The notes under the pieces: model-generated
Databases searched by the model: none
What the model was told of the DNA's origin: nothing
Seen by the model: only the letters and a program-made list of their open reading frames with translations
NCBI GenBank assembly: GCA_012518905.1
Contig: JAAYRF010000047.1
Location: 1 to 38,942 of the forward strand
Length of the DNA stretch: 38,942 nucleotides
Reading direction: 5' to 3'
DNA from: Bacillota bacterium
Lineage (GTDB): Bacteria > Bacillota > Limnochordia > DTU087
Part shown: positions 6,387 through 38,383 of the stretch, one piece after another
Numbering within the stretch: the first letter of the stretch is position 1
Layout of the letters: each line of letters begins with the position of its first letter
Position numbers and translations under genes: made by a program

Positions 6387-7571
6387 TTATCTATCGTTCA
6401 GAGCCTCAACTCCAGGCAATGCCTTTCCTTCGAGAAACTCCAAAGATGCCCCTCCGCCTGTGGACACATGGGTCATCTTGCTCGCCAAGTTAGCTTGTTC
6501 TACGGCGGCGGCGGAATCGCCTCCCCCGATAATAGTAATCGCATCGCTATTGGCCATGGCCTCTGCAATCGCGTTGGTACCCTTAGCAAAAGCCGGCATC
6601 TCGAAAACGCCCATGGGGCCATTCCAAACAACGGTCTTGGCTGTTTGGATTTCCCCTGCAAACAACTCTATAGTTCTTGGTCCAATATCCAATCCCTGCC
6701 ATCCGGCTCGCATCTTGTCAGCATCCACAACTTCGTGTTTAGCGTCAGCCGCGAAAGCATCGGCAATGACCACATCTACGGGCAGAAGGAATTTAACGCC
6801 CAGCTGTTTAGCCTCATCCATCAAATCCAGAGCCAGCTGAAGACTCTCGCTATCGAGCAATGAATTGCCGATCTCGTATCCTTGAGCCTTTAGGAATGTA
6901 TACGCCATTCCGCCCCCGATAACTAATGTATTGACCTTCTGCATGAGGTTGCTGATGACTCCGATTTTGTCTGCAACTTTAGCGCCTCCTAAAATAGCGA
7001 CAAAGGGGCGCTCGGGGTTCTGTAGGGCTTTACCCATAGTCTCGATTTCCTTCTGCAAAAGAAAGCCAGCTACTGCCGGCAAGTACTGCGCAATGCCGGC
7101 TGTGGACGCGTGAGCCCGGTGGGCTGCACCAAACGCGTCATTGACATATATGTCCGCCAGTGCCGCCAACCCCTTGGCGAACTCCGGATCGTTTTTCTCC
7201 TCCCCCGGATGGAAGCGCACATTTTCCAGAAGGAGAATGTCTCCATCTTGAAGAGCATCGGCAGCCTCCATGGGCTCAGCACCAATGCAGTCATCTACCT
7301 TTGTGATCTCTTGGCCGAGCAATTCAGCCAGCCTTTGAGCGACTGGATCGAGCCGATACTTTTCCCCAGGTCTACCTTTGGGCCTGCCTAGATGGGAAGC
7401 CAAGATCACCCTGGCACCTTGGTCAGCAAGATACTGGATTGTGGGCAAGGCTGCTCTAATGCGCTTGTCATCAGTTATGTTGCCCGCCTCATCCATGGGA
7501 ACATTAAAGTCCACCCGCACAAATACCCGTTTGCCCTTCACATTGATATCTTTCACCGTGCGTTTGTTCAT
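6387..7571 (-). CDS. pgk: Phosphoglycerate kinase
   Basis: [43 protein letters not shown]. Confidence 0.99.
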
Positions 7572-11010: not shown

Positions 11011-11090
11011 TTCCGCGTGGGAGATGCCCCACTTCCCCCTCTCTTTCTCATACAACCTGGGGCTCAGGCATTCCTATGCTTACCTCGGCC

Positions 11091-11118
11091 CTTCGCCACT
11101 TAAAACCTCAATTCCTCT
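11091..11118 (-). promoter_or_regulatory. SigH-like promoter of whiA
   Basis: AGAGGAATT-12 nt-GGCGAAG. Confidence 0.6.
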
Positions 11119-11215
11119 ATTGCACCGGGTATCACACACCTTGCTTCCATGGTACGCTCGATTTGACTTGTAGTGTTGATAATCCCTTAATTGAGCTGTC
11201 GCAGCACCAAACGGT

Positions 11216-11245
11216 GTATCACTTTGGCTCGGGAAACTCATATTA
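11216..11245 (+). promoter_or_regulatory. SigG-like promoter upstream of the PHP gene
   Basis: GTATC-18 nt-CATATTA versus consensus GHATR-N18-CATXHTA. Confidence 0.4.
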
Positions 11246-11285
11246 TTTGGGGGATGGAGCACTACTTAAGAAAGAGGTAACTACC

Positions 11286-12017
11286 CTGAGAATCTTCGCC
11301 GATTATCACACTCATACAGTGCACAGCCATGGTCGAGGTACAGTGGAAGACAATGTGAAAGCCGCTATTTCCGCAAATCTGAGGGCCATTGCCATAACCG
11401 ACCATGGACCGGCTAACCTTTTTGGTGTCGGTGTAAAGAATTTGGATGTCTTCCAAGTCATCAGGCAAGAGATAATCGCCTGTCAACGCAAGTTCCCCCA
11501 CATCCAGATCCTATTGGGTGTGGAAGCCAATATCATAGACCTGGACGGAACCTTGGACGTACCTTTAGAAAGGCTCCACGAGTTCGACATAATCTTAGCC
11601 GGCCTCCACCTACTTGTGCATACTAACAGCTTGCTTTCGGGCATGGTCATGGCCGGCAATCTCATTGGCCGCTACTGCCCAGTGGCAAGGAACCGTCTGC
11701 GTAAACTCAATACGCAAGCAGTCATTGCAGCCTTGACCCAGTATCCCATAGATATTCTTACCCATCCAGGCCTTAATGTTGACATTGATACCCGGGCAGT
11801 TGCCGAAGTGGCTGCCCAAACAGGTACCTATATGGAAATTAGCACAAGGCACCACAACATCCAGCCATCCTACCTAGAAACTGCTTTCGTGGCCGGAGCT
11901 CGTTTCGTCATAAGTAGTGATGCCCACTCTCCCGGTGAGGTAGGAGAGGGAGAGCTCGGTACGCAGCTAGCTAAGGCTGCAGCCATACCTCCTTGGGCCA
12001 TACATAACCTGAGCTAG
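11286..12017 (+). CDS. PHP-domain phosphoesterase (YcdX/HisPPase-like)
   Basis: DYHTHT, ITDHGP, GVEANI, THP and SSDAH metal ligands; probable CTG start at 11286 behind SD AAGAGGT. Confidence 0.88.
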   Translation: MRIFADYHTHTVHSHGRGTVEDNVKAAISANLRAIAITDHGPANLFGVGVKNLDVFQVIRQEIIACQRKFPHIQILLGVEANIIDLDGTLDVPLERLHEFDIILAGLHLLVHTNSLLSGMVMAGNLIGRYCPVARNRLRKLNTQAVIAALTQYPIDILTHPGLNVDIDTRAVAEVAAQTGTYMEISTRHHNIQPSYLETAFVAGARFVISSDAHSPGEVGEGELGTQLAKAAAIPPWAIHNLS

Positions 12018-15044: not shown

Positions 15045-16214
15045 CTAGTCCCTTTGATAAACCACCTTACCTCCTACAATAGTAGCCAGCGTATTCAAGT
15101 CATGGTCGAATATGGCTGCGTCTCCATCCTTGCCTACTACTAAGCTACCTTTGCATCTATCCATATTAACGGCCTGTGCCGGATTCAAAGATGCCATGCG
15201 AATGGCTTCAGGAAGAGATGCGCCTAGCATACACATCGCATTCTTCACCGCTCTTGCCATAGATAACGTGCTGCCTGCTAGATTACCACTCATCAGGCGA
15301 GCCGCCCCATCTACTACTTCAACTTCGAGACCGCCCAATTCATACCGGCCCTCCGGCAGGCCCATTGCGGATATGGTATCTGTGATGAGAACGATTCTCT
15401 CGGGACCTTTGGCTCGGTAAACGAGCTGCATGGCAGCGGGATGGACATGGATGCCATCACATATCAGTTCTGCGGAGAAACCGTCACAGACCAATGCCGC
15501 CCCTGCTAGACCCGGCTCTCTGTGATGCAAACCCCGCATTCCGTTGAAGGTGTGGCAAATGTGGCTAGCACCCCACAGATAGGCCTCCATCGCTTGATCG
15601 TATGATGCATCGGAGTGGCCAAGGGACACAGTAATGCCCCAGGACCGCAATTGACGTATGGCAGAAAGAGCCCCTTCCACTTCAGGAGCAAGGGTAACTA
15701 GTTTGAGCAAAGGACCAAGCTCTCCTTGGATCTCCTTCAACTCTTCCAGGGAGGCAGGGCGGATATATTTAGGATTTTGAGCTCCCTTTTTCTCCTCATT
15801 AATGAATGGACCTTCCAGGTGCAAACCCATGACTTGGGCACCACTTGTTCCCTCTTGAGCAGCTCGCTTAACTGCCCCTGCAATCCTTCGAAGCTCCGAT
15901 TGGGAAGCAGTTACTGTAGCTGGCAAGAAAGCGGTCGTGCCGTAACGACTGAAGGTCTCAGACATTTTCTCCAAAGACTCCACAGTCCCATCCATTACGT
16001 CGCCTCCGCCCGCGCCATGGACATGAATATCGATGAGGCCCGGTGTAACGTAAGCACCCTGAGCATCAAAAACAGGTCCTACCTCGGGGGCTCCATCCTT
16101 TGGCCCTACATAGACTATAATCCCATCCTCAATAACAACTGTCCCTTCCATGACCTGAAAGGGAGTCACCAGCTGTCCATTAACGATGGTAATACTGTGC
16201 TTATGCACACTCAA
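15045..16214 (-). CDS. nagA: N-acetylglucosamine-6-phosphate deacetylase
   Basis: PGLIDIHVHG, HLEGPF, TLAPE, HTFNGM..LHHREPG, DGIHVHP, LAGS. Confidence 0.98.
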   Translation of the reverse strand: MSVHKHSITIVNGQLVTPFQVMEGTVVIEDGIIVYVGPKDGAPEVGPVFDAQGAYVTPGLIDIHVHGAGGGDVMDGTVESLEKMSETFSRYGTTAFLPATVTASQSELRRIAGAVKRAAQEGTSGAQVMGLHLEGPFINEEKKGAQNPKYIRPASLEELKEIQGELGPLLKLVTLAPEVEGALSAIRQLRSWGITVSLGHSDASYDQAMEAYLWGASHICHTFNGMRGLHHREPGLAGAALVCDGFSAELICDGIHVHPAAMQLVYRAKGPERIVLITDTISAMGLPEGRYELGGLEVEVVDGAARLMSGNLAGSTLSMARAVKNAMCMLGASLPEAIRMASLNPAQAVNMDRCKGSLVVGKDGDAAIFDHDLNTLATIVGGKVVYQRD

Positions 16215-16238
16215 TCACCCCTTTCACCTCCACTCTCG

Positions 16239-16266
16239 CTTCGCCAGGATGGGAGGTATTTCCTGC
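16239..16266 (-). promoter_or_regulatory. SigH-like promoter of nagAB
   Basis: GCAGGAAAT-12 nt-GGCGAAG. Confidence 0.6.
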
Positions 16267-16320
16267 CAGAAGAGACAGGTTCTTCATGGTAGGACACTCC
16301 CTGGTTGATTGTCGTCCTCC

Positions 16321-16350
16321 AATTATGCCCTCTCTCCAGGCTACCTATCC
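16321..16350 (-). promoter_or_regulatory. SigF/SigG-like promoter directed toward nagAB
   Basis: GGATA-15 nt-GGGCATAATT versus SigF consensus GYATA-N15-GGnnAnAnTW. Confidence 0.4.
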
Positions 16351-16360
16351 TAGGGTAGAC

Positions 16361-16390
16361 GCATAAATGCCCTGGGCAGGACACATACTT
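16361..16390 (+). promoter_or_regulatory. SigG-like sporulation promoter of DUF4912-GH57
   Basis: GCATA-18 nt-CATACTT. Confidence 0.5.
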
Positions 16391-16442
16391 AAGAAGGTAT
16401 TCTCACATTGCCGGTTGGCGTTATGGGGCTGGAGGTGCCATA

Positions 16443-17156
16443 GTGAAGGGATTAGGTGTCGAAGCAAAGTCCCCAGAGAGAAGCAAAGTCGCAACCGAAC
16501 TAACAGCTGGTATGGAGACGGCTAGCCCTCCTACCAGCGACTTGTGGATCGATGGCACCAGCGAAGAATGCCTGCCTGAACCTTCTACAGCTCTAACCAC
16601 CAAGGAGCTTCCCAGGGGCTATGGGGAAGATGTTGTTGTGCTCTTGGCTCGGGATCCTACCTGGCTGTTCGCGTACTGGGAGATCACCGCAGAGGGTTGG
16701 GCCAGGGTACGACAAGACCTGTCTGACGGGCAATGCTCTCCTACCTTGCGAGTCTATGACCTGGGGCCTCAGGGACAACAGCCAACGGGATTCTTCGATG
16801 TTGCCGTTCAACCCTTCGCCGATAGGTGGCACATTAACACAGGCAAAGTAGGCTGCAGATTCCGGGTGGATATCGGGATACGTACACCTACAGGGGATTT
16901 TCGTCCCATTGCTGCCTCTAACATTATCCAAATGCCAAGAGGAAGAATGAGCTCTGCCGTGGCCAACAAGTGGTTTAGAATCGAGGAATTCTGGCTCCCC
17001 ACTGCCGCCTTTCCCCCAGGCGGCAGCCCCATGGGTTGGCTCAAACAACGAAAGGCACAGTTATCGGAGCTAGAAGGATATCCCACCAGCCCCGGGATTT
17101 TTAGCCCCATGGGTTTCGGCAGTCAACCCAAGCAGCCACCCCAAGGCCCAATCTGA
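16443..17156 (+). CDS. DUF4912 domain protein
   Basis: ELPRGYGEDVVVLLARDPTWLFAYWEI..LRVYD..W..FRPIAASN signature; usual partner of GH57; SD GGAGGTG. Confidence 0.85.
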   Translation: MKGLGVEAKSPERSKVATELTAGMETASPPTSDLWIDGTSEECLPEPSTALTTKELPRGYGEDVVVLLARDPTWLFAYWEITAEGWARVRQDLSDGQCSPTLRVYDLGPQGQQPTGFFDVAVQPFADRWHINTGKVGCRFRVDIGIRTPTGDFRPIAASNIIQMPRGRMSSAVANKWFRIEEFWLPTAAFPPGGSPMGWLKQRKAQLSELEGYPTSPGIFSPMGFGSQPKQPPQGPI

Positions 17157-17215
17157 TCGATAGCACAGGGCATAGAACCATTCTTGGAAAGGGAGTATAT
17201 TCCCAGGAAAGGAGT

Positions 17216-18859
17216 ATGGGCTTGCACCACAACTCTGGTTATGTCGCCATCGTTCTTCATGCCCATCTACCGTATGTAAGGCATCCGGAGACCACAAAAT
17301 GTCTGGAAGAACTCTGGCTGATGGAAGCCATCACTGAAACATATATTCCCCTACTCGAGATGCTGCAGGGCCTTTTGCGTGATGACATAGACTTTCGAAT
17401 CACCATGTCCATCACGCCTACGCTGGCTTCCATGCTGTCAGATGAATTCTTGCAGATGCGTTATGTGGGCCACGTCGATCAGCTCTTAGAACTGGCCGAA
17501 AAAGAAGTGAACAGGACCCGTTGGCAACCGAAACTTCAGGCCATTGCGCTAATGTACAGAAACCAGTTTCAAAGAGCTAGGCAAGTGTTCGATACCTATC
17601 ACCACCGTCTATTGGACGGTTTCAATGAGGTTGAAGCCACCGGCAAACTGGAAATCATGGCTTCTGCTGCTACCCATGGGTATCTGCCCCTGCTCTTTGT
17701 GGATAAGAAAGCCGTCGAGGCACAGATTGCCGTAGGGGTGGAAGCTTATCGCTATGCTTTCGGTAAAGACCCCGAGGGCTTTTGGCTCCCAGAATGTGGT
17801 TTTACACCCGGCATAGACGACATCCTGGCAGCTCATGGGATCCGTTACTTTCTTACTGATACCCACGGCATACTTCACGCTGAACCTCGTCCCGAAACCT
17901 CAGTCTATTCCCCCATCTATTCAGCGGCTAACGTAGCAGCTTTCGGCCGAGACTGGGAGTCATCCAAACAGGTTTGGAGTGCCACCGAAGGATATCCTGG
18001 CGATTACTGCTATAGAGATTTCTATCGTGATATTGGCTTTGATGCAGACTACCAATACATCAAGACTTATCTGGTCAACGGCATCAGGGGCTTTACTGGC
18101 ATCAAGTACCACAGGATAACCGGGCCTTCTGATCACAAGGAACTATATGATCCGGCTATGGCCCAGAAGAAAGCCGCTGAGCACGCCGGCAATTTTATGT
18201 TTAATCGAAAGTTACAGATCCAGTATCTGGCAACTCAGATGAACCGTCCACCCTTGATAGTTGCTCCCTATGATGCAGAGCTGTTTGGTCATTGGTGGTA
18301 TGAAGGCCCTCAGTGGCTAGATTACCTCTTACGTAAATGCGCTCATGATCAGAATACTTTCACCCTGATTACTCCCCGAGAGTACCTGGAGCGCCACCCT
18401 TCTGCACCGGTAGGCATGCCTTCCGAATCAAGCTGGGGTAATGGCGGATACCATGAAGTCTGGCTGGACGGGAGCAATGATTGGATTTATCGGCATCTTC
18501 ATAAAGCTGCCCAACGAATGGTAAAAATGGCCAATCAATATCAAAATGCCCAAGGGACTCTGGAAAGGGCTCTAAATCAAGCCGCTAGAGAATTGTTCCT
18601 GGCTCAAGCAAGTGATTGGGCCTTTATCATGAAGACCGGCACCTTAGTAGAATATGCCCGGCGTCGTACCCAAGACCATATTCTCAACTTCACTGAGCTC
18701 TTTGGGCAGATTACTGCCAATCATCTCGATGAAACTTGGTTAAATGGCTTGGAAGCAAGGCATAACATCTTCCCCTGGCTGGATTTTCGAGTTTTTGCCG
18801 GGGACTTGAAACAGCCTGCCACCAAGGCAAGCTGGCTCTCCAGAGCTGGCACCAGGTGA
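17216..18859 (+). CDS. GH57 1,4-alpha-glucan branching enzyme (with DUF1957 C-terminal domain)
   Basis: LHAHLPYV, ATHGYLP, FWLPECG (nucleophile Glu), PYDAELFGHWWYEG (acid/base Asp), LAQASDWAFI; true start may be TTG 17222. Confidence 0.93.
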   Translation: MGLHHNSGYVAIVLHAHLPYVRHPETTKCLEELWLMEAITETYIPLLEMLQGLLRDDIDFRITMSITPTLASMLSDEFLQMRYVGHVDQLLELAEKEVNRTRWQPKLQAIALMYRNQFQRARQVFDTYHHRLLDGFNEVEATGKLEIMASAATHGYLPLLFVDKKAVEAQIAVGVEAYRYAFGKDPEGFWLPECGFTPGIDDILAAHGIRYFLTDTHGILHAEPRPETSVYSPIYSAANVAAFGRDWESSKQVWSATEGYPGDYCYRDFYRDIGFDADYQYIKTYLVNGIRGFTGIKYHRITGPSDHKELYDPAMAQKKAAEHAGNFMFNRKLQIQYLATQMNRPPLIVAPYDAELFGHWWYEGPQWLDYLLRKCAHDQNTFTLITPREYLERHPSAPVGMPSESSWGNGGYHEVWLDGSNDWIYRHLHKAAQRMVKMANQYQNAQGTLERALNQAARELFLAQASDWAFIMKTGTLVEYARRRTQDHILNFTELFGQITANHLDETWLNGLEARHNIFPWLDFRVFAGDLKQPATKASWLSRAGTR

Positions 18860-18908
18860 CAATTGATCTTGGCCCCTTTTCCAAAGAAAACGTCTTCATC
18901 TTCGATTA

Positions 18909-21380
18909 CTATCGAAGCTGTCCCTCAATTTCACCCAAATATAGCTGAGCTAAGGAATCTGCTTCATCGTATGTTGGTGCTTCAGCATAGACCCTCACCA
19001 TCGGGTCTTCACCATCTGGCAAGACTAGAGCCCATCCCTGCTCATGATAGACCTTAATGCCATCGATCAAATCTCTGGGTCTATCTACAGTACTTGCCAA
19101 AAGGGTGTGCATAACCCTTCCCTTCTCCTGCCAAGTCACAGGTATATCCAGTTCTCTTCTTCCCTTTGCTGGAATGGAGGCCACTAGTTTTTCCAGGCTC
19201 ACTCCCTCCCGGGCCACCAAGCTCAGTAGTGCAGCAATGAAGGACAGAGCATCAAAGGCAGGGTGCAGCAAGGTCAGATCTCCCTCAGCTTGACCGTCAG
19301 CCCCCTGGAGAACAGCCCGGGGATTATTGGGAGTCCGTACAACCGGAAGATGGTATCTGGCCGCCAATTCCTCAACAGAGTGGGGTGCCGTCACCGGTAC
19401 CGCCATAACCTTACCAATATCTTTACCTCTAACAGCAAAAGCCCATGTGAGTAACGGCCAATACACATCCTCCGACAAGAGCTCACCTTCACCGCCAACT
19501 ACCAAGACAGTTCTTCCACTACCGCCAACCAGAAGGCCTAGAGCCGCCTCCTCTCGGAGTACCGTATCTATCACTTGACTCAGATAAGAGTCCTGCTGAA
19601 ACAAAGCTGTATTGGGGGCAACCCCTGGTTCTTTGTCGAAAGCGACATCAATAACTTGGCAGCCTAGCTCATCTAGCAGTGGTGGCAGCAAAAACCTCAG
19701 GGCCGGTGAGGTATAGCCAATCACCACCGATAGACGTTGGCCACCAAAAGAGGCTTTGCCGTACTGCTGGCAAAGAGCCTTCAGATAGGCTTGGTTGGCA
19801 CCAGCGGCAAATTGCGTTCTCCCAACCTCACCTCCCGGAACTCGGCGAAAATCTCCCCGGTAGAAGTAGTTCTCCAAAGCCCGTTCCTGATTGCGACTAA
19901 ATGGAAAGCCTTTCTCATCGAGGATCTCAACCTCGATTTGATCCGACATTTTCCGTCCTTGTTGGACATATACTCCTGCTTTGGTCTTTGTCAGTACCGT
20001 GGTAAAGCGGGTTACTGGCAGTGTAGTGGATCCGATATCAACTACATTAACTCCGCTTGACAAAACACCGGCGGTAAGCGCTCTCTTCACCATACGGGAT
20101 GGTTCCCAACCATCAGCTGCAACTAACACTGCTTGTCGTAGATCCAGCATTGCCCCTAGACTAGCCCCTACCCGAGCAGCAAATTCCGGGCTAATCTCCA
20201 CATTGGCAAGCCCCACTATGCCAGTGTTGCCAAATAGGCTGCTGGAGCAGGTTCCAGCCCATACTACATCTTCGGTAACAGTAGTGGACTTCTCAACCAG
20301 TTTCTGGGGCCAGATCTTAACACTGGGGCGAATTGTACTTGACATCCCCAAGATACTGCTTTGGCCAATAACAGCTCCTTCAAATATCCTGACCTTAGGT
20401 TTCACCACAGCCTGATTGCAGATTACCGTGCCCCTGACTTCTGCCCCATTGCCGATATGTACATTGTTCCAAACAATTGAACGCTTAATCGAACTCTGCT
20501 GACCTACCACACTATTGGACCCTATGATCGTATGGGGACCAACGACAGCCCCCCGCTCTACACGGCTGTTTCTTCCCAAGATGGCAGGAGGCCTAATTAC
20601 TGCATCTTGATGGATGAAGGCTCCTTCTTCCGTCCAGATACCCCCTTGATCTTGGCCCGAAAGCCGCGTCCGCACCTTTCCCTCCAACAGATCGATATGG
20701 GATTGTACATACTGTTCTAAATTTCCGATATCTGACCAGTAACCACTGGCCACATAGCCATAGAGGGGCTCACCACGTTGAAGCATGAGGGGAAAAAGGT
20801 CCTTGCTAAAATCGAATTGGCGCCCCGTTGGTATCAAGGATAGAGCCTCGGGCTCTAGTATATAGATGCCGGTATTAACTGTATCGCTGAAGACTTCTCC
20901 CCAACCAGGCTTTTCCAGGAAACGTTCTACCTGGCCAGCCTCGTTGATAAATACTAACCCATATTCTAATGGTGATGATACTCGGGTCAGGACTAAGGTA
21001 GCCAGCGAACCTTTCTCATGATGATAGGCTACCGCCCCCTCTAGATCCAAATCGGTTAGACTATCTCCCGAGATCACAAGACAGGTCCCATCTAGGAAAC
21101 TCCTCGCGTTTTTGACGCTACCGGCGGTACCTAGGGGCTGATCTTCCACGAAGTATTGCAGTCTAACGTTCCACGGAGCGCCATCCCTAAAGTGCTCTTC
21201 AATGATCTCTGGTATATAGCAGGTAGTTACAGCTATATCTTCTATCCCATTTAGAGCCAAAAGTTCAACGATGTATTCCATCATCGGGCGGTTAGCTACT
21301 GGCACCATGGGCTTGGGAAGATCACAAGTTAAAGGCCGAAGTCGACTTCCTTGTCCCCCCGCCATAATGACTGCCTTCAT
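18909..21380 (-). CDS. Sugar-1-phosphate nucleotidyltransferase (mannose-1-P guanylyltransferase-like) + left-handed beta-helix + phosphohexomutase-like domains
   Basis: AGGQGSRLRPLT..PKPM, FLEKP, YWSDIG; hexapeptide repeats; LFGNTGIVG and DGIKV..W.LVLP..P.VRVYAE mutase-fold segments. Confidence 0.9.
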   Translation of the reverse strand: MKAVIMAGGQGSRLRPLTCDLPKPMVPVANRPMMEYIVELLALNGIEDIAVTTCYIPEIIEEHFRDGAPWNVRLQYFVEDQPLGTAGSVKNARSFLDGTCLVISGDSLTDLDLEGAVAYHHEKGSLATLVLTRVSSPLEYGLVFINEAGQVERFLEKPGWGEVFSDTVNTGIYILEPEALSLIPTGRQFDFSKDLFPLMLQRGEPLYGYVASGYWSDIGNLEQYVQSHIDLLEGKVRTRLSGQDQGGIWTEEGAFIHQDAVIRPPAILGRNSRVERGAVVGPHTIIGSNSVVGQQSSIKRSIVWNNVHIGNGAEVRGTVICNQAVVKPKVRIFEGAVIGQSSILGMSSTIRPSVKIWPQKLVEKSTTVTEDVVWAGTCSSSLFGNTGIVGLANVEISPEFAARVGASLGAMLDLRQAVLVAADGWEPSRMVKRALTAGVLSSGVNVVDIGSTTLPVTRFTTVLTKTKAGVYVQQGRKMSDQIEVEILDEKGFPFSRNQERALENYFYRGDFRRVPGGEVGRTQFAAGANQAYLKALCQQYGKASFGGQRLSVVIGYTSPALRFLLPPLLDELGCQVIDVAFDKEPGVAPNTALFQQDSYLSQVIDTVLREEAALGLLVGGSGRTVLVVGGEGELLSEDVYWPLLTWAFAVRGKDIGKVMAVPVTAPHSVEELAARYHLPVVRTPNNPRAVLQGADGQAEGDLTLLHPAFDALSFIAALLSLVAREGVSLEKLVASIPAKGRRELDIPVTWQEKGRVMHTLLASTVDRPRDLIDGIKVYHEQGWALVLPDGEDPMVRVYAEAPTYDEADSLAQLYLGEIEGQLR

Positions 21381-21382
21381 GA

Positions 21383-22726
21383 TCACACCCCTCCCCTTTG
21401 ACTAGGGAAAGACTCCCGGGCATTGTCAAAGCCATGGGCGAAGGATGCTGTATCTTGATAGCGGGACAATGCACCTTGGGTTGTAAGCCGCGTTCCTCCT
21501 AGAATACCGTCAGCGGGGAAACTATCGGCCTCTCGCCACGGGCTCTCGGCAAACTCACTGAGTATCTCCTCATATACTGCCAGAGTCCTTTGGGCGATCA
21601 AAGACCAGCTGTACTCCTCCTTAACCATTTCAAGAGCACGTGTTTTGATGTACCTTGCGAATTCTGGTGCATCAAGGTACGCCAATATATTATCTGCCAG
21701 GGACTGGGCATTACCTGGATAGGCCCGAAGCCCGTTTTGGGCATGCTGTACTATCTCTGACAGTCCTCCTGTATCGGACACAACTACTGGTACTCCAGCA
21801 GCCATGGCCTCGAGCGCCACTATGCCAAAAGGTTCATATAAGCTGGGCACTACGGCCACATCAGCGCAGGCATACAGGCGGTTGCGGGTGAGATCGTCGA
21901 TAAACCCGGCAAAGTAAACGCTTTGGGCCACTCCGAGTCTCTGGGCCCGTTCTCTTAAGGCAAATTCCGCCGGACCTCTACCGGCAACAACGAACTTAAC
22001 CCGTTTGAATCTGGACAGGACTCGAGGAATTGTCTCAACAAGTGTATCAACGCCTTTTTCATGTACCAAACGACCTACAAAGAAAACAATGGCTTCACTA
22101 TCTGCTGCGTAGCGACGCCGAAAACCCCGACGATCAAAGGAGTCTTCAATGGAAAAATCCGATACATCTACACCATTGGGCAACACAGAGATCTTGTCTA
22201 TAGGTGTTTGGAAAATATACTGAATCTCGCCCCGCATGTACTGGCTACAACATATTACCTTCCAAGCTTCATATGTCAACCACCACTCTAGATTGCTGAT
22301 GTGGCGCTGCTGATCATTGTGGAGCCCGTGGTTGCGTCCAAATTCTGTAGCATGAATAGTGGCTACCAAGGGGCGCATAAGGCCGTGTTTCATCGTTTTG
22401 CCGGCATGTGCTGCTAACCAGTCATGCCCGTGGATGATATCAAAGGTGTGGCCTTGTCGGATCAGTCCCAAAGCAGCCTCTAACATGTGTACATTGAGAT
22501 GGGTAACAGATTCGATGAAATCCCGACCTTGAGGACCATACATCCTCAATCTGTGAACATGGACGCCTTCTACAACTTCCACCGAGGGAGTACCGTCTGC
22601 ATCACCAGTTAGTACATGCACCTCTTGACCCAGCTTAGCCAATTCCTCGGAGAGCTCGGCCACATGCCGACCCAATCCTCCAACAACTTGGGGAGGGTAC
22701 TCCCACGATAACATCAGAATCTTCAC
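21383..22726 (-). CDS. GT4 family glycosyltransferase (glycogen-synthase-like N-terminus)
   Basis: WEYPP.VVGGLGRHV, HGHDWL, TIHATE, VGRLVHEKG, PSLYEPFGIVALEAM (EX7E); GTG 22726 with SD GGAGG. Confidence 0.92.
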   Translation of the reverse strand: MKILMLSWEYPPQVVGGLGRHVAELSEELAKLGQEVHVLTGDADGTPSVEVVEGVHVHRLRMYGPQGRDFIESVTHLNVHMLEAALGLIRQGHTFDIIHGHDWLAAHAGKTMKHGLMRPLVATIHATEFGRNHGLHNDQQRHISNLEWWLTYEAWKVICCSQYMRGEIQYIFQTPIDKISVLPNGVDVSDFSIEDSFDRRGFRRRYAADSEAIVFFVGRLVHEKGVDTLVETIPRVLSRFKRVKFVVAGRGPAEFALRERAQRLGVAQSVYFAGFIDDLTRNRLYACADVAVVPSLYEPFGIVALEAMAAGVPVVVSDTGGLSEIVQHAQNGLRAYPGNAQSLADNILAYLDAPEFARYIKTRALEMVKEEYSWSLIAQRTLAVYEEILSEFAESPWREADSFPADGILGGTRLTTQGALSRYQDTASFAHGFDNARESFPSQRGGV

Positions 22727-22834
22727 CGAACCGCCTCCCAGCTCTTTTCTTCTAGCTTTTCCCAGACCACCAATTCTATGCAATCGAAATAGAGTCTAGG
22801 GGCTTATGGCTTTTCGGTTATGTCTTGAGGAGGT

Positions 22835-23851
22835 TTAGATTCGCTGGAGCTCTTCTCCGGCGGCCCGCAGAAAGCTCACCAGCCTGCGGAAGTGCCGTCG
22901 GCTGCTTCGTTCGTGTTTAAGCCTTGCTATCATGTGTTGAGCAAAGATCAGTAGGCTAGCATCCACCGTCTGCGGTGTAAGGCTTGTCGACCAGCCTTCT
23001 GCAATCCAAGCGGAGTCTCGAAAGGCCTGGCGAACTACTACATGGGGCGCGAAAGCACGAGTATGCCAGAAAAGGTAGTATAGCAGATCAAAAAGGGGAG
23101 GTGCTTGGAAACACTGTTCACCCCAATCGATAACATAAAGAGATCCATCGTGGCGGATAACGTTGGGGTGCTTTAGATCTCCGTGTACCAGACCCTGCCG
23201 AATAGGCTGCCCGTTAAGAATGCTTGGCATCCCATCAAGACCCGCCTCCTTCAGCACATTGAGTAAGGTCTCGCATTTGCCCTCGAAACGTAATTCCAGT
23301 GGTTTGTCGAAGACTTGGGTATCGAAGACCAGGCCGAGATGGGGCCAAAGAACCCGTAAAGCTGCCAGACCCTCATCGAGGTCGTACAGGGGGATACACC
23401 GTCCATGCATGTATTGCTCTGTAAATATTAGGTTAGGCTCGTCCCATTCAAGAATAGCCGGGCTTATGGAGATCACAGCCGGCTGGCGGCGCACCCATAG
23501 TTCCTGGTGGAAAAGAGCTTTGGATGAAAGCTTCCGGGTCACCCTGGCCCGCTCAAAATCAAAGGCAATCCACTTTTCATTGTTTCCCATGAACACAACA
23601 TCCCAGTAGGTATCCGACAATATCGGGGCACTACCAACCGGCAGCAAGTGTCGCCAAATAGGACGCCGCAAAACTCCAAATAATCCTGCTTTGATCCTTC
23701 GTCCCAACCAGCTTCCTTCTGCCGCCAAAACGTTGGGGGCCATGCTGTCTACCACCTGTTGCCAGGCTATCTTCGAATCAGCTACATAAAAGTTGCCTAT
23801 GCCCCGCATTTGATACGACTTATCGACTGCCGTTACCTGATAGGTCACCAT
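22835..23851 (-). CDS. APH/choline-kinase-fold phosphotransferase of unknown substrate
   Basis: HGDLKHPN catalytic loop, YVIDWG metal motif, PLFDL; ATG 23851 with SD GGAGAG (ORF is open to 23905). Confidence 0.75.
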   Translation of the reverse strand: MVTYQVTAVDKSYQMRGIGNFYVADSKIAWQQVVDSMAPNVLAAEGSWLGRRIKAGLFGVLRRPIWRHLLPVGSAPILSDTYWDVVFMGNNEKWIAFDFERARVTRKLSSKALFHQELWVRRQPAVISISPAILEWDEPNLIFTEQYMHGRCIPLYDLDEGLAALRVLWPHLGLVFDTQVFDKPLELRFEGKCETLLNVLKEAGLDGMPSILNGQPIRQGLVHGDLKHPNVIRHDGSLYVIDWGEQCFQAPPLFDLLYYLFWHTRAFAPHVVVRQAFRDSAWIAEGWSTSLTPQTVDASLLIFAQHMIARLKHERSSRRHFRRLVSFLRAAGEELQRI

Positions 23852-23977
23852 GGAATACACTCTCCACATCAGTAGACTAATCTCCTCACTAGTAGAGGAT
23901 CGCATGTGGAGTCCTTAGCGTTCATGGTAAGCTTCTCCTGCCTCTGCCTTGCCATATCGTCCCTTTGCCTTACCATT

Positions 23978-24008
23978 AAGAAACCGGAAGTGAGTACACC
24001 TCCGGTTT
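23978..24008 (-). terminator. Probable terminator after the DOMON gene
   Basis: AAACCGGAGGTG-TACT-CACTTCCGGTTT stem followed by CTT. Confidence 0.65.
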
Positions 24009-24046
24009 GCCCTGTATACATAGGAATGTTTGGGTTGTTTTCTTGA

Positions 24047-25012
24047 CTATTGGCCATAGCCCGGTGGCTCTTGTCGGAAGACTGTTATGAAGATTCCTCC
24101 TAGCAAGCACAGCACAGCTAAACTTGCTAACAAATGTCCCATGGTAAAAGGCAAAGATAGCCCGTGACTGACTGGGATAAGGACGGGATACTCTCCTTGG
24201 GCTAGATCCTTGGTCTCCAGTTGTGCTTTTTGGCTCCTCTTGCCACCTAGCCTAGGATCCAGTAGATCGATAACATTAGGCCCATCAGCCATCGTGGCCC
24301 CACCAAAGGACCACTGACTCGCCACCTCCTGAATAGCCCGATATTGATCGGGCCCAAAGGTGTCAAATCCGCCGACTAGCACATAGTATTGCCATTTTCG
24401 AGCAGGGATCCCGGCAATCTCCAGAGGCACCTCTCCCCGAATAGTCTTGTTATCGGGCAATAACAAGGCCTTGATGGGGTGGACTTTGGCTGGATCAGAG
24501 CGAGCGTCTAGCCAGCGGGAGCCGCCCCAAGGCTGTATCCGCAAGCGATACTCCCAGCCGGCCTCCGGCGAAAACATGATCCCCGGACCCGGTGCCACAG
24601 GTTTAAGGTGACCGCCGGGTTCACTATCAATATATACATCTATGAGCTGATGGAAGAACCCCTCTGGCGCCTTCCACGGGTTTGTGACCTTGGCAAAAGA
24701 AATGTCGAAATAGATATTTTCATTGTCATGCCAGATGTGGACTCGCCTTAGATCAAACAACCCTGGCTCAAATACATGGTGAAGTGGGTAGGTCACGGCA
24801 CCGGAGCCGTAATCATCGCCTAATCTGTCCTCCACGCTAAAGACTACCTGACTGGCAGCGACATTTTGTCCAGCAAATGGTAAAATCCAGACTAACATGA
24901 CGCCTACCATGGTCATAGCTGACCATATCTTCGTTCTCCGGGATAGGCCGCTGCGCATCCTACTCGATTTTGGCCACAGCCTCCTAGCCTTCCTTAGCGC
25001 TCTGTGCTGCAT
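24047..25012 (-). CDS. Exported, C-terminally anchored glucodextranase DOMON-like domain protein
   Basis: GDDYGSG..TYP...F..G.FDL, NPWKAPEGF.HQLIDVYID, VLVGGFD; basic then hydrophobic N-terminal signal; C-terminal TM helix. Confidence 0.8.
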   Translation of the reverse strand: MQHRALRKARRLWPKSSRMRSGLSRRTKIWSAMTMVGVMLVWILPFAGQNVAASQVVFSVEDRLGDDYGSGAVTYPLHHVFEPGLFDLRRVHIWHDNENIYFDISFAKVTNPWKAPEGFFHQLIDVYIDSEPGGHLKPVAPGPGIMFSPEAGWEYRLRIQPWGGSRWLDARSDPAKVHPIKALLLPDNKTIRGEVPLEIAGIPARKWQYYVLVGGFDTFGPDQYRAIQEVASQWSFGGATMADGPNVIDLLDPRLGGKRSQKAQLETKDLAQGEYPVLIPVSHGLSLPFTMGHLLASLAVLCLLGGIFITVFRQEPPGYGQ

Positions 25013-32388: not shown

Positions 32389-33969
32389 CTATAGCTTTTC
32401 CACGCCAGTTCGCAAAAGCCCGTACTCTATGCTATCTACTAAAGCTCGCCAACTAGCCTCAATCAAGTTGGTAGATACACCTACTGTTCCCCACGTCTGC
32501 ACCCCATCGGTGGATTCGATAAGCACTCGCACCTTAGCACTGGTGCCGCGCCGTTCATTTAAAACCCGCACCTTATAGTCAGCGAGCCGGATATCCTTCA
32601 GACGCGGGTAGGCTTCTTCCAGTGCTTTGCGAAGGGCATTATCCAAAGCATTGACGGGCCCGTTGCCTTCTGCCACCTGATGGGATGTCCGCCCGCCGAT
32701 CTTTACCTTGACAGTGGCTTCGGCCAGAGGCTCTTCATCCCGATCTTGCTTTTCAATAATGACCCTGAGTCCCTCCAGGTGGAAAAAGGGGGTGTATAGA
32801 CCAAGGGATTTCCTTAACATGATCTCAAACGAAGCTTCAGCTCCTTCAAAATGGTACCCCTGATACTCCAGGTCTTTGATCACATCTACCACACTGCGCA
32901 ATGCCGAAGAGTCCTCTTCTAAGGCAATATTATACTCTTGCGCCTTGTAAGCTATGTTGCTGGCACCGGATAGTTCAGAGATCAGGACCCTGCGTCGATT
33001 ACCCACTGACTCCGGCGGTATATGCTCATACGTTTCAGGGTGACGCATCAAAGCACTTACGTGCAGACCTCCCTTATGAGAGAAAACGCTTCTGCCTACA
33101 AAGGGCTGCCTATCATTGGGAATCTGGTTGGCCACTTCCGAAACAAACTTTGATAGGCGGGTAAGCTGCCTTAGGCTCTCTGGGGTGAGGCATTCTCGAC
33201 TAGCCTTGAGCTGCAGGTTCGGAATCACGCTGCACAAGTCGGCATTGCCACACCGCTCGCCATATCCGTTGATGGTTCCTTGGATGTGCTGAGCTCCCGC
33301 ATTCACCGCAACTAAGGTGTTGGCGACTGCCAAACTTGAGTCATTGTGGACGTGTATTCCCACCTGGACGTTTACAGCATCGACAGCTGCTCGGGTCGCA
33401 ACATCTACCTCCCAAGGCAAGGTGCCACCGTTGGTATCGCAAAGGACCACCACCGCCGCTCCGGCCTTTGCGGCACACTGCAATACTTCTAGGGCATAGA
33501 CAGGATTCTTCTTATAGCCATCAAAGAAATGCTCAGCATCAAATATCACTTCCAGGCCCTGGGCACAAAGGAAGGCAATACTATCTCTTACCATGGCCAA
33601 GTTTTCTTCCAGTGTAGTCTGGAGGGCGTTAGTAACATGGAAATCCCAGGCCTTACCAACAATAGCCGCTACGCTGACCTCTGCTGCTAATATGGCCTGG
33701 AGGTTTCTATCCTGGGAAGCTGCGACACCAACCCGACGGGTGCTACCAAAGGCGGAGAGCTTGGCATGCTGCCACTTCATCTCCTTGGCTCTCTGAAAGA
33801 ACTCGTTGTCCTTGGGATTGGAGCCGGGCCACCCTCCTTCAATGTAATCGAACCCTAACTGATCTAGCCTTTGAGCGATCTTGAGCTTGTCTTCCACGGA
33901 AAAAGAGATTCCCTCTCCCTGGGCTCCGTCCCGCAAGGTTGTATCATAGAGAATGATTTTGCCGGTCAT
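32389..33969 (-). CDS. cimA: Citramalate synthase
   Basis: [53 protein letters not shown]. Confidence 0.93.
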
Positions 33970-36835: not shown

Positions 36836-38383
36836 CTAAACCTCCCCTTCTATTGCCACAGGGCTCTTTGGGCTCTCACCTTGTTCATAGACTAACTTGT
36901 TAAGAGCATGGACATAGGCCTTGGCGCTAGCTTCAATCACATCAGTGCTCATCCCCCGGCCAACATAGTCAGAACCGTTACTGGTAATGCGCACGGTAAC
37001 TTCGCCCAAGGCGTCCTTGCCGCCGGTGACGGCCCTTAATGCATAACTTTGCAGTTGCACCATGATACCGCTAGCCCGATCTATCGCCCTATAGACAGCA
37101 TCGATGGGTCCGGCTCCGCAAGCCGCTTCCTCGACTACAACTTCACCCCGCAGCAAACGCACCGTAGCTGTAGGCACCGTGGAATTGCCACTGGAAACAT
37201 GGATGTAGTCCAAAACGAAGCTTTCCGGGACAGCTATCAGGTCTTCCTTTAGCAGAGCCTCCAAATCACGGTCAGAGATCTCCTTTTTCTTATCGGCCAG
37301 ACTAATGAACCTCTCAAATGCCTTCTCCAACTCGATCTCCGTGAGATGATAGCCCATCTCCTTGAGCTTCTCCCGAAAGGCATGCCGGCCAGAGTGCTTC
37401 CCCAGCACTAACCGGCTCTGATGTAATCCAATGGACTGGGGTGTCATGATCTCATAGGTAGAAGGAGCCTTGAGAAATCCATCTTGGTGAATACCCGATT
37501 CATGAGCGAAGGCATTGGCACCGACAATAGCCTTATTGGGCTGTACCGATATACCGGTCAGAACGCTGACCAAGTGACTGGTCCTGTAGATATGCTCTGT
37601 CACGATTTTGGTCTCTAGGCCATAGGTATCTTGTCGAGTAGCCAAGGCCATCACGATCTCTTCTAAGGAAGCATTGCCGGCCCTTTCCCCCAGGCCATTT
37701 ATGGTGCACTCCACTTGTGTAGCGCCGGCTTGTAAAGCGGCTAAGGAGTTGGCTACGGCTAAACCTAGATCATTATGGCAGTGAACACTTAGCTGACACC
37801 TATGGATCTCAGGAACACTATCTTTCAAGTACTGAATAAGCCTTCGGTATTCCTCCGGAGTCGTATACCCTACTGTATCAGGGACATTGATGCGAGTGGC
37901 ACCGGCTTCAATCACCGCGGCAAGGATCTCGGCCAAGAAGACCCAATCACTGCGGGTAGCATCTTCAGCTGAAAACTCTACATCGTCAGCGAACCCGCGG
38001 GCATGAGCCACAGCCTCAATCGCCATTTGCATAACCTGATTTGGTCTTTTGCGAAGCTTATACTCCATGTGAATAGGCGACGTAGCAATAAAGGTATGGA
38101 TCAATGGCTGCTTGGCTTGCTTAAGGGCAGCAGCCGCGGCCTTTATGTCCTTGGCGGTTGCCCGAGCCAAAGCAGCAATAGCGGGTCCCTCAATCTCAGC
38201 GGCGATAGCTGCGGTAGCCTCAAAATCTCCCGGCGATGCCACGGGAAATCCAGCTTCTATCACGTCAACTTGCAGCTTGGCTAACTGTCGTGCGATCTCT
38301 AACTTTTCCTCCACACTAAGGCTAATGCCCGGCGTTTGTTCGCCATCTCGCAACGTTGTATCGAAGATATAAACCCGTGACAT
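36836..38383 (-). CDS. leuA: 2-isopropylmalate synthase
   Basis: [39 protein letters not shown]; C-terminal regulatory domain. Confidence 0.97.

Follow-up and report, generated by a model that had tools for sequence, protein, structure and literature searches.

Gene content and conservation of the locus

We analysed a 38,942-nt stretch of DNA from a Bacillota bacterium (contig JAAYRF010000047.1; hereafter the window), in which 31 open reading frames (ORFs) were scanned, and report here on six genes at 16443-25012 that a preliminary description had drawn together as one alpha-glucan system. On the plus strand, a DUF4912 gene (16443-17156; 237 aa; Pfam DUF4912, 97.8 bits) stands 59 nt ahead of a GH57 gene (17216-18859; 547 aa; Pfam Glyco_hydro_57, 129.8 bits). 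Convergent with this pair, the minus strand carries four genes transcribed in the order Glucodextran_C, kinase, GT4, nucleotidyltransferase (NTase) fusion. The first encodes a DOMON-like Glucodextran_C protein (24047-25012; 321 aa) and is followed by a spacer that folds into a 12-bp hairpin (23981-24008, minus strand); the second encodes an APH-fold kinase (22835-23905; 356 aa; Pfam APH, 31.7 bits against a cut-off of 23.2); the third, 51 nt downstream of the kinase gene, a GT4 glycosyltransferase (21383-22783; 466 aa; Glycos_transf_1, 145.5 bits; Glyco_transf_4, 105.3 bits; Glyco_transf_5, 75.4 bits); and the fourth an NTase-pseudomutase fusion (18909-21386; 825 aa; NTP_transferase, 189.4 bits; hexapeptide/LbH; PGM_PMM_I, 68.6 bits), whose start overlaps the GT4 stop by 4 nt. 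All six genes, with their domains, lie where the preliminary description had placed them, and its remark that the window lacks the classical glycogen genes also stands, with no glgA, glgB, glgC, glgD or glgP among the scanned ORFs.

Four of these genes, encoding DUF4912, GH57, GT4 and the NTase-pseudomutase fusion, form a real and conserved cytoplasmic alpha-glucan module, whose product and sugar donor we infer. What we observe is the gene content, intact catalytic motifs, the conservation of gene pairs and the fusion of GH57 to GT4 in relatives. GT4 and the NTase-pseudomutase fusion make up one pair of the module, DUF4912 and an AmyC-type GH57 the other, and none of the four proteins carries an export signal that we could recognise on reading its sequence.

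Conservation was assessed in the best 80 of 522 confirmed relatives of the NTase fusion, obtained by a genome scan with the fusion alignment and taken with 10-kb flanks (individual loci carry L numbers below). ORFs in these loci were labelled by BLASTP with the window proteins (at least 40% query coverage) and by custom profiles; a GT4 orthologue was required to have at least 40% identity and at least 75% coverage, and 57 of the 80 loci have at least 1.5 kb of upstream flank. In 22 of the 80 loci the gene immediately ahead of the fusion gene, and co-directional with it, is a GT4 orthologue; in one further locus, L017, the two are 0.7 kb apart. GH57 is found within 10 kb in 14 of the 22 GT4-adjacent loci and in one of the other 58, again L017 (Fisher p = 3e-9, uncorrected for relatedness), DUF4912 in 15 of the 22 and none of the 58; where both flanks of a GT4-adjacent locus reach at least 8 kb, the share with GH57 is 11 of 15. 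The clustering of these genes exceeds chance.

Within the clusters the arrangement is tight. Wherever DUF4912 and GH57 occur together (14 of 14 loci), DUF4912 is the co-directional gene immediately ahead of GH57, and -14 to 101 nt separate its stop from the first aligned GH57 residue. GH57 and GT4 form a single stop-free ORF in six loci (L019, L023, L026, L030, L035 and L036), from Phosphitispora, Fictibacillus, Halalkalibacter, Paenibacillus and two metagenome-assembled genomes (MAGs). A small CBM53 starch-binding protein is encoded directly upstream of GT4 in six of the GT4-adjacent loci and a GH15 enzyme directly downstream in three, both Pfam-checked; neither a CBM53 nor a GH15 gene was found in the window. 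These fusions and neighbours bear out the alpha-glucan link that had been claimed for the core, just as its recurrence in other Firmicutes, which had been stated as well, is confirmed across Bacillota lineages by the 80-locus comparison. Most record titles of GT4-adjacent loci name Bacillota (Desulfotomaculia-like, Heliobacteria, Bacilli and the clade of the window itself), and four lie outside: Obscuribacteraceae, Armatimonadota, and MAGs titled Betaproteobacteria and Desulfovibrio. Literature searches, with subscription journals outside their coverage, returned no description of the four-gene module.

Several individual loci add detail. The two MAGs titled Betaproteobacteria and Desulfovibrio (L015 and L017) have fusion proteins that cluster with Bacillota in the tree, a mismatch that could reflect binning error, mislabelling or gene transfer. 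Just past the module, L004 (~15250-17300) carries extra GH57-like ORFs (32% identity) and a PHP-domain gene, and L014 has a second, distant GT4 (26%) after GH57.

Enzymes of the four-gene core

The GH57 enzyme retains its catalytic pair, as had been claimed: in a gap-free alignment Glu193 and Asp353 correspond to E185 and D349 of Thermotoga maritima AmyC, and both are invariant in all 16 aligned module GH57s. The residues in AmyC are the nucleophile and the acid/base, respectively (PMC6616209, Table 1). AmyC (PDB 2B5D) is also the closest GH57 overall, at 523.8 bits and ~55% identity in a near-gapless alignment, and the window enzyme carries a C-terminal helical BE_C (DUF1957) domain (PF09210, 134.7 bits). 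The inserts that follow the nucleophile and occupy the loop region in the enzymes of Thermococcus kodakarensis, Pyrococcus horikoshii and Thermus thermophilus are missing from both the window GH57 and AmyC, so that the window enzyme lacks the 17-22-residue flexible loop and beta5-beta6 strands by which true branching enzymes are recognised (PMC9291813); it also falls below the NCBIfam branching-enzyme equivalog cut-offs (317 against 1000 bits and 316 against 920). It is of the loop-less AmyC type. The general statement that GH57-DUF1957 proteins are branching enzymes does not hold for all of them.

The loop-less class is large, and its part in true glycogen branching is disputed. Loop-less proteins make up 2296 of 2497 GH57 "branching enzymes" (PMC9291813), and they show low or no activity on amylose, that of AmyC being low but reproducible (PMC9291813); branching activity has been measured for AmyC (PMC6616209, PMC9291813). 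The authors of the survey suggest that loop-less GH57s work in pathways yet to be identified, possibly on a chain that is still being extended, and left the in vivo pathway open (PMC9291813). AmyC and the window GH57 share the catalytic Glu/Asp and the lack of the flexible loop and beta5-beta6 insert, but AmyC has been studied as an isolated enzyme, whereas the window GH57 belongs to a conserved four-gene context.

DUF4912 is a core part of the module and probably an accessory partner of GH57. Its AlphaFold2 model (pLDDT above 90 at residues 60-165 and 74.2 overall) finds FN3 domains as its best Foldseek PDB matches (E ~1e-4; TM, by target, 0.53-0.72), and the protein is accordingly modelled as a cytoplasmic FN3-like beta-sandwich at residues ~60-165 with disordered ends. 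No paper on DUF4912 function appeared in literature listings, which excluded subscription journals, and this would be a first structural and contextual hypothesis for the family. Its N-termini vary by lineage, with a membrane-anchor-like hydrophobic stretch in L021, L005, L014, L025 and P0147; a ...GKVQYRW.KYR... motif is conserved in four Bacilli loci (L023, L026, L030 and L035); and P0143, P0145, P0149, P0150 and L004 carry an extra C-terminal domain.

The GT4 protein is a retaining glycosyltransferase and is presumed to elongate an alpha-1,4-glucan. It combines Glyco_transf_4 and Glycos_transf_1 with the E-x7-E motif of GT4-type GT-B enzymes, and R238, K243, E317 and E325, the last two forming that motif, are invariant in 24 of 24 orthologues. 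Its N-terminal domain matches the starch-synthase family Glyco_transf_5 (7.4e-21, Pfam), and its nearest PDB entries are GlgM (6TVP, 3.1e-31) and then Pyrococcus abyssi GlgA (2BIS, 4e-28). The fusion to GH57, the coupling of the genes and the CBM53 and GH15 neighbours point to a glucan chain as its product, not a small solute or glycolipid, which is the outcome that would have spoken against the glucan proposal from the start.

The fourth protein joins an NTase with LbH (residues 1-350) to a mutase-like domain (residues ~380-825; window 18909-20250). Compared with GlmM, which is also encoded in the window, the mutase half lacks the SASHNP serine loop, has GGSGRT in place of DGDADR and GEDP in place of the TEP loop; neither the serine loop nor the metal loop is kept in any of 74 fusion proteins (the window and 73 loci), so that the signatures of an active alpha-D-phosphohexomutase (T/S-A-S-H-N-P and D-x-D-x-D-R) are gone throughout. 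The label "pseudomutase" was well chosen. In Streptomyces the commonest replacements of these motifs are RTS-PGV and DPVGER. With a dead mutase half, the sugar-1-phosphate must come from elsewhere, and the complete route from donor synthesis to branching that had been proposed is retained here as a proposal in which this half has no catalytic part. The NTase half is presumed to supply NDP-glucose: its best solved relative, 8X7S, is named "UTP--glucose-1-phosphate uridylyltransferase" (209 bits over 314 residues), which we take to be CugP and for which the literature search gave no paper, and it scores 129.3 bits against GlgC (TIGR02091), below the cut-off of 424.9.

The fusion family is very large (7999 of 8000 scored candidates matched), and the absence of both loops in 74 of 74 proteins makes its public name, "mannose-1-phosphate guanylyltransferase/phosphomannomutase", doubtful. 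In a tree of 73 of the 80 loci (seven partial matches, or matches with less than 90% coverage, were excluded), the GT4-adjacent fusion proteins do not form one clade and follow host groups, which gives no sign of a specialised subfamily. Further members bring contexts of their own. A CBM53-like small protein is encoded divergently upstream of the fusion gene, without adjacent GT4, in the Clostridia-type loci L007, L013 and L033, calls made with a custom profile and confirmed by Pfam for L013 only. In Streptomyces, 20 of 21 loci have the fusion gene start 0.83-1.15 kb from a contig end (L048, L053, L054, L059-L062, L064-L066, L068-L070, L072, L074, L075 and L077-L080), and a feature that disrupts assembly seems to sit immediately before the gene. 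We infer that SCO1388 belongs to this family.

Proposed product of the core and its closest known systems

We think it probable that the module builds and remodels an alpha-1,4/alpha-1,6-glucan without GlgC, GlgA or GlgB, and that the kinase and Glucodextran_C genes are neighbours outside the core. The NTase half would convert glucose-1-phosphate to NDP-glucose, UDP-glucose being the best guess; GT4 would elongate alpha-1,4 chains; GH57, with FN3-like DUF4912 as its partner, would transfer or trim them; and the dead mutase half may act as a sugar-phosphate sensor or a structural scaffold. Each step of the classical GlgC-GlgA-GlgB pathway, namely NDP-glucose supply, alpha-1,4 elongation and alpha-1,6 branching, would have its counterpart here, but from another family: an NTase like GDP-mannose pyrophosphorylase (GMPP) for GlgC, GT4 for GT5, and GH57 for GH13. 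The NTase half resembles the GMPP/CugP-like NTases (8X7S) in its NTase and LbH architecture and differs from them in being fused to a 450-residue dead mutase domain.

A number of points weigh against this proposal. The module members are known from their sequences, and their product and activities are deduced. The best NCBIfam match of the NTase is the Rv3264c-type mannose-1-phosphate guanylyltransferase NF052502 (262.6 bits, below its cut-off of 440), with which the public names agree; GT4 falls under every NCBIfam cut-off and is as much like GlgM as like GlgA; and loop-less GH57s have been proposed not to be true glycogen-branching enzymes (PMC9291813). Four of the 15 fully flanked GT4-adjacent loci have no GH57 within 10 kb, and the fusion gene stands without an adjacent GT4 in 57-58 of the 80 loci. 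Among 24 such loci, in which 51 of 141 listed neighbour ORFs were scanned with Pfam, it adjoins DUF881 in six (L007, L012, L013, L018, L033 and L048) and, in Actinobacteria, a CDP-alcohol phosphatidyltransferase in four (CDP-OH_P_transf; L047, L048, L052 and L071), contexts which indicate that the fusion family is not dedicated to the glucan module and hint at a second role unrelated to glucan. Finally, the role considered below for the kinase draws on its fold and position, and the gene occurs at one other locus.

The closest known system is the mycobacterial pair Rv3032 (a GT4 alpha-1,4-glucosyltransferase) and Rv3031 (a GH57), a "non-classical" route to glucan or methylglucose lipopolysaccharide (MGLP). 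Like the window module, it sets a retaining GT4 beside a loop-less GH57 and is independent of GlgA and GlgB (PMC2674218, PMC9291813, PMC9041414); the window module differs in having no methyltransferase or acyltransferase genes, in its DUF4912 and NTase-pseudomutase, and in the fusion of GH57 to GT4 in six relatives. This likeness is an argument for a different product, a short, primed, MGLP-like alpha-glucan oligosaccharide in which GH57 forms one special alpha-1,6 link. For Rv3031, a role in making the reducing-end alpha-1,6 bond of MGLP has been put forward (PMC2674218), the Mycobacterium tuberculosis GH57 lacks the loop and beta5-beta6 and showed no activity on amylose (PMC9291813), and a short product would account for the poor action of loop-less GH57s on amylose. 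However, neither the methyltransferase and acyltransferase genes of MGLP-type clusters nor glucosylglycerate genes were found among the window ORFs or the scanned neighbours of the module, and CBM53 in six loci and GH15 in three indicate longer chains; we consider such an oligosaccharide unlikely.

The solved relatives of GT4 suggest another possibility, that it is a GlgM-type maltose-1-phosphate synthase feeding GlgE elsewhere in the genome. GlgM (6TVP) is the best solved relative, glgA_Coryne (GlgM; TIGR02149) is the best NCBIfam match, and ~32% of annotated GlgA homologues are GT4 (review, PMC11046441). The TIGR02149 score, at 176.4 bits, is nonetheless far under the cut-off of 302.4, as is that for GlgA (TIGR02095; 118.9 bits against 328.45, over the C-terminal half only); GlgM is mostly actinobacterial (PMC11046441); GlgE, TreS and Pep2 were not seen in the window or among scanned neighbours (49 of 124 listed ORFs in 20 GT4-linked loci); and fusion to GH57 is more in keeping with two enzymes that handle a polymer than with a disaccharide-phosphate synthase. 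GlgM and archaeal GlgA (2BIS) are the nearest solved GT4 relatives, from which the window protein is set apart by its scores below the cut-offs and by a 39-kb window without GlgE context, and a GlgM-type role strikes us as quite improbable.

The kinase, the Glucodextran_C protein and the wider meaning

The kinase is a rare, lineage-specific addition, an APH/eukaryote-like small-molecule kinase. Its family keeps the HGDLKxxN and IDWGE motifs, with H241, G242, D243 and N248 invariant and the metal-binding D260 nearly so, as APH kinases require. The AlphaFold2 model (pLDDT 88.1) matches many APH-fold kinases in Foldseek with probability 1.00, at query-normalised TM values of 0.31-0.46 and 10-17% identity; LicA choline kinase is the best match, alongside APH(4)-Ia, CcrZ, glucosamine kinase, methylthioribose kinase and maltokinase, and structural neighbours in the Atlas include NTase-choline-kinase fusions. 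An assignment as maltokinase (Pep2/Mak) found no family match, and 5JY7 ranks 35th (TM 0.35, 10% identity). TCAD9 was considered and rejected, as its matches span just the 30-residue kinase loop and stay under the cut-off. The family is tiny, with six proteins in a word-indexed search and 15 representatives at E<=1e-3 among 1.84 billion in an exhaustive one; beyond L001, its relatives (P0002-P0006 and P0127-P0141) come mostly from metagenomes. Its profile matches one of the 80 loci, L001, which is the closest relative of the window (fusion protein 65% identical) and is syntenic with it from the solute-binding-protein gene to cggR; a profile search added no remote copies in the other loci.

The genes for the kinase, GT4 and the NTase fusion probably share one transcript. 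Anomeric sugar kinases and nucleotidyltransferases form salvage pairs in AmgK-MurU and LicA-LicC, and a supply of sugar-1-phosphate to the NTase, in the manner of such pairs, is the most plausible role for the kinase. Here too an APH-fold kinase adjoins an NTase, and LicA is the best fold match; the differences are the low identity to characterised kinases (10-17%) and a pairing seen in only two genomes. Going by modelled fold and gene position, an anomeric sugar-1-kinase feeding the NTase is a possible identity that we put forward tentatively.

The Glucodextran_C protein matches PF09985 at 180.4 bits (cut-off 22) over profile positions 1-227 of 228, and its only PDB relative is the glucodextranase 1UG9 (residues 779-912, 2.2e-9). 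It shares its Pfam family with the C-terminal domain of the Arthrobacter enzyme (1UG9/1ULV), its sole solved relative, but unlike that enzyme it consists of the domain alone, with a signal-like N-terminus, a C-terminal anchor and no catalytic domain. Hydrophobic stretches are apparent by eye at both ends and are kept in L001, L002 and L041, in agreement with the exported DOMON-type protein of the preliminary description, and we take the protein to be a predicted exported, membrane-anchored, sugar-binding one. In the window and L001 the C-terminus (24047-24180) has a sortase-signal-like LPFT(M/W)G, hydrophobic stretch and Arg, an ending not kept in L002 or L041 and without an NCBIfam match; an Atlas "Firmicu-CTERM sorting domain" cluster returned at a score of 0.88 serves as a lead only. 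Stand-alone Glucodextran_C proteins are common in Bacillota, and no paper on them was found in literature listings, which did not extend to subscription journals.

The Glucodextran_C protein is only loosely tied to the module, being encoded beside it in a few lineages and falling outside the conserved set. Its gene occurs in four of the 80 loci (L001, L002, L015 and L041), all of them among the 22 that are GT4-adjacent and none among the other 58 (Fisher p = 0.0046, uncorrected for relatedness), and a profile search added no remote copies elsewhere. In the fusion tree L001, L002 and L015 fall into the same clade as the window, and there the gene adjoins alr/nnr, so that inherited gene order explains these three; L041, which is distant, has no alr, and carries a ROK kinase gene and a weak DUF4912 alongside, is the sole independent case. 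In L002 and L015 the flanks, which reach up to 10 kb either way, contain no GH57, and none was found in L041, a 12-kb contig with 3.5 kb downstream. The slot between Glucodextran_C and GT4 is filled lineage by lineage with unrelated genes in L002, L015 and L041, the unnamed ORFs there in L015 having no Pfam family even at E 0.1.

In the window 55 nt separate the Glucodextran_C gene from alr, and a spacer of 141 nt, the widest in this minus-strand run of genes, separates it from the kinase gene. L001 (~7320-7350) shares the hairpin at 23981-24008, three changes in it being pair-compatible, in a spacer that has otherwise diverged, a comparison of two sequences; the whole 141-nt spacer has a fold z-score of only -1.69, and a pattern scan did not call the hairpin a terminator. 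It may mark a transcript boundary or processing site, and the gap together with the conserved hairpin suggests that Glucodextran_C and kinase-GT4-NTase are on two transcripts.

These observations bear directly on the proposal that all six genes form one system for a phosphorylated or envelope-associated branched glucan, the kinase modifying the polymer and the DOMON-type protein anchoring it. The four minus-strand genes are indeed co-directional, with gaps of at most 141 nt, and their order is kept in L001; Glucodextran_C, a domain that derives from an alpha-glucan enzyme, occurs only at GT4-adjacent loci, including one that is distant and lacks a nearby alr. But the comparison of neighbourhoods that had been suggested as a check finds, among the 80 loci, the kinase with the core in L001 alone and Glucodextran_C in four, of which shared ancestry explains three; unrelated genes occupy the intervening slot elsewhere, and the widest gap and the hairpin set Glucodextran_C apart. 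The kinase has the fold of a small-molecule kinase, not of a glucan dikinase. An exported Glucodextran_C protein cannot touch a cytoplasmic polymer, and with no exporter in the window and no recognisable export signal on the core proteins a glucan at the surface finds no support. Nor does an extension of the system by the kinase and the DOMON-type protein; the six-gene claim is mostly a local accident of gene order, and we hold such a system to be very unlikely. Least likely of all is that the NTase makes GDP-mannose and GT4 is a mannosyltransferase with a product other than glucan: PimA-type mannosyltransferases are among the PDB matches of GT4, and the Rv3264c-type match and the public names of the fusion agree, but that match is below its cut-off, the nearest solved NTase is named as a UDP-glucose enzyme, the "phosphomannomutase" half has lost its catalytic motifs in every fusion protein, and GH57, CBM53 and GH15 act on or bind alpha-glucans.

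The surroundings of the six genes are largely housekeeping. One flank holds nagA/nagB, yvcK, rapZ, whiA and the gap operon, with a PHP-domain gene (11076-12017) between whiA and rapZ that is kept in L001; the other holds alr, nnr, acpS, glmM, a solute-binding protein, an L,D-transpeptidase and leu genes, in which two LeuA/HMGL-type genes (32389-33969 and 36836-38383) flank leuB, leuD and leuC and the second could encode a citramalate or homocitrate-type synthase. Base composition is uniform across the region, and the kinase and Glucodextran_C genes resemble the rest of the window in GC, GC3 and codon usage, on which ground a recent horizontal acquisition of either was rejected. A defence system was likewise rejected: none of the six proteins matches PADLOC, and the Pfam GT4-conflict and TCAD9 matches are generic or below the cut-off. 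Across the whole window no Rfam family reached its gathering score, and promoter and terminator pattern scans stayed at chance (16 against 14.3 expected and 18 against 15.1).

Taken jointly, the proposals above would describe a self-contained, GlgCAB-independent pathway of Bacillota and some other Terrabacteria, with an obligatory DUF4912, a mutase-derived sensor, and a kinase and a surface protein gained in one lineage, a combination that is unlikely as a whole. Were it true, the 92% of GH57 "branching enzymes" that are loop-less would gain from this module the physiological setting that has been missing; DUF4912 would be their obligatory partner, membrane-anchored in some lineages; the dead mutase domain would be an allosteric sensor of sugar phosphate; the kinase would bypass phosphoglucomutase; and, through a glucan-binding protein at the surface, synthesis in the cytoplasm would be tied to a glucan associated with the envelope.

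A review has pointed to GT4 enzymes beside GH57 as possible uncharacterised glycogen synthases, for archaea only (PMC11046441), and the pathway served by loop-less GH57s is the question that their survey left standing (PMC9291813). The conserved neighbourhood described here, with GH57 translationally coupled to DUF4912, fused to GT4 in some hosts and linked to the NTase-pseudomutase, CBM53 and GH15, offers a concrete and testable answer to that question, in which the likely substrate of a loop-less GH57 would be the chain growing on its partner GT4.

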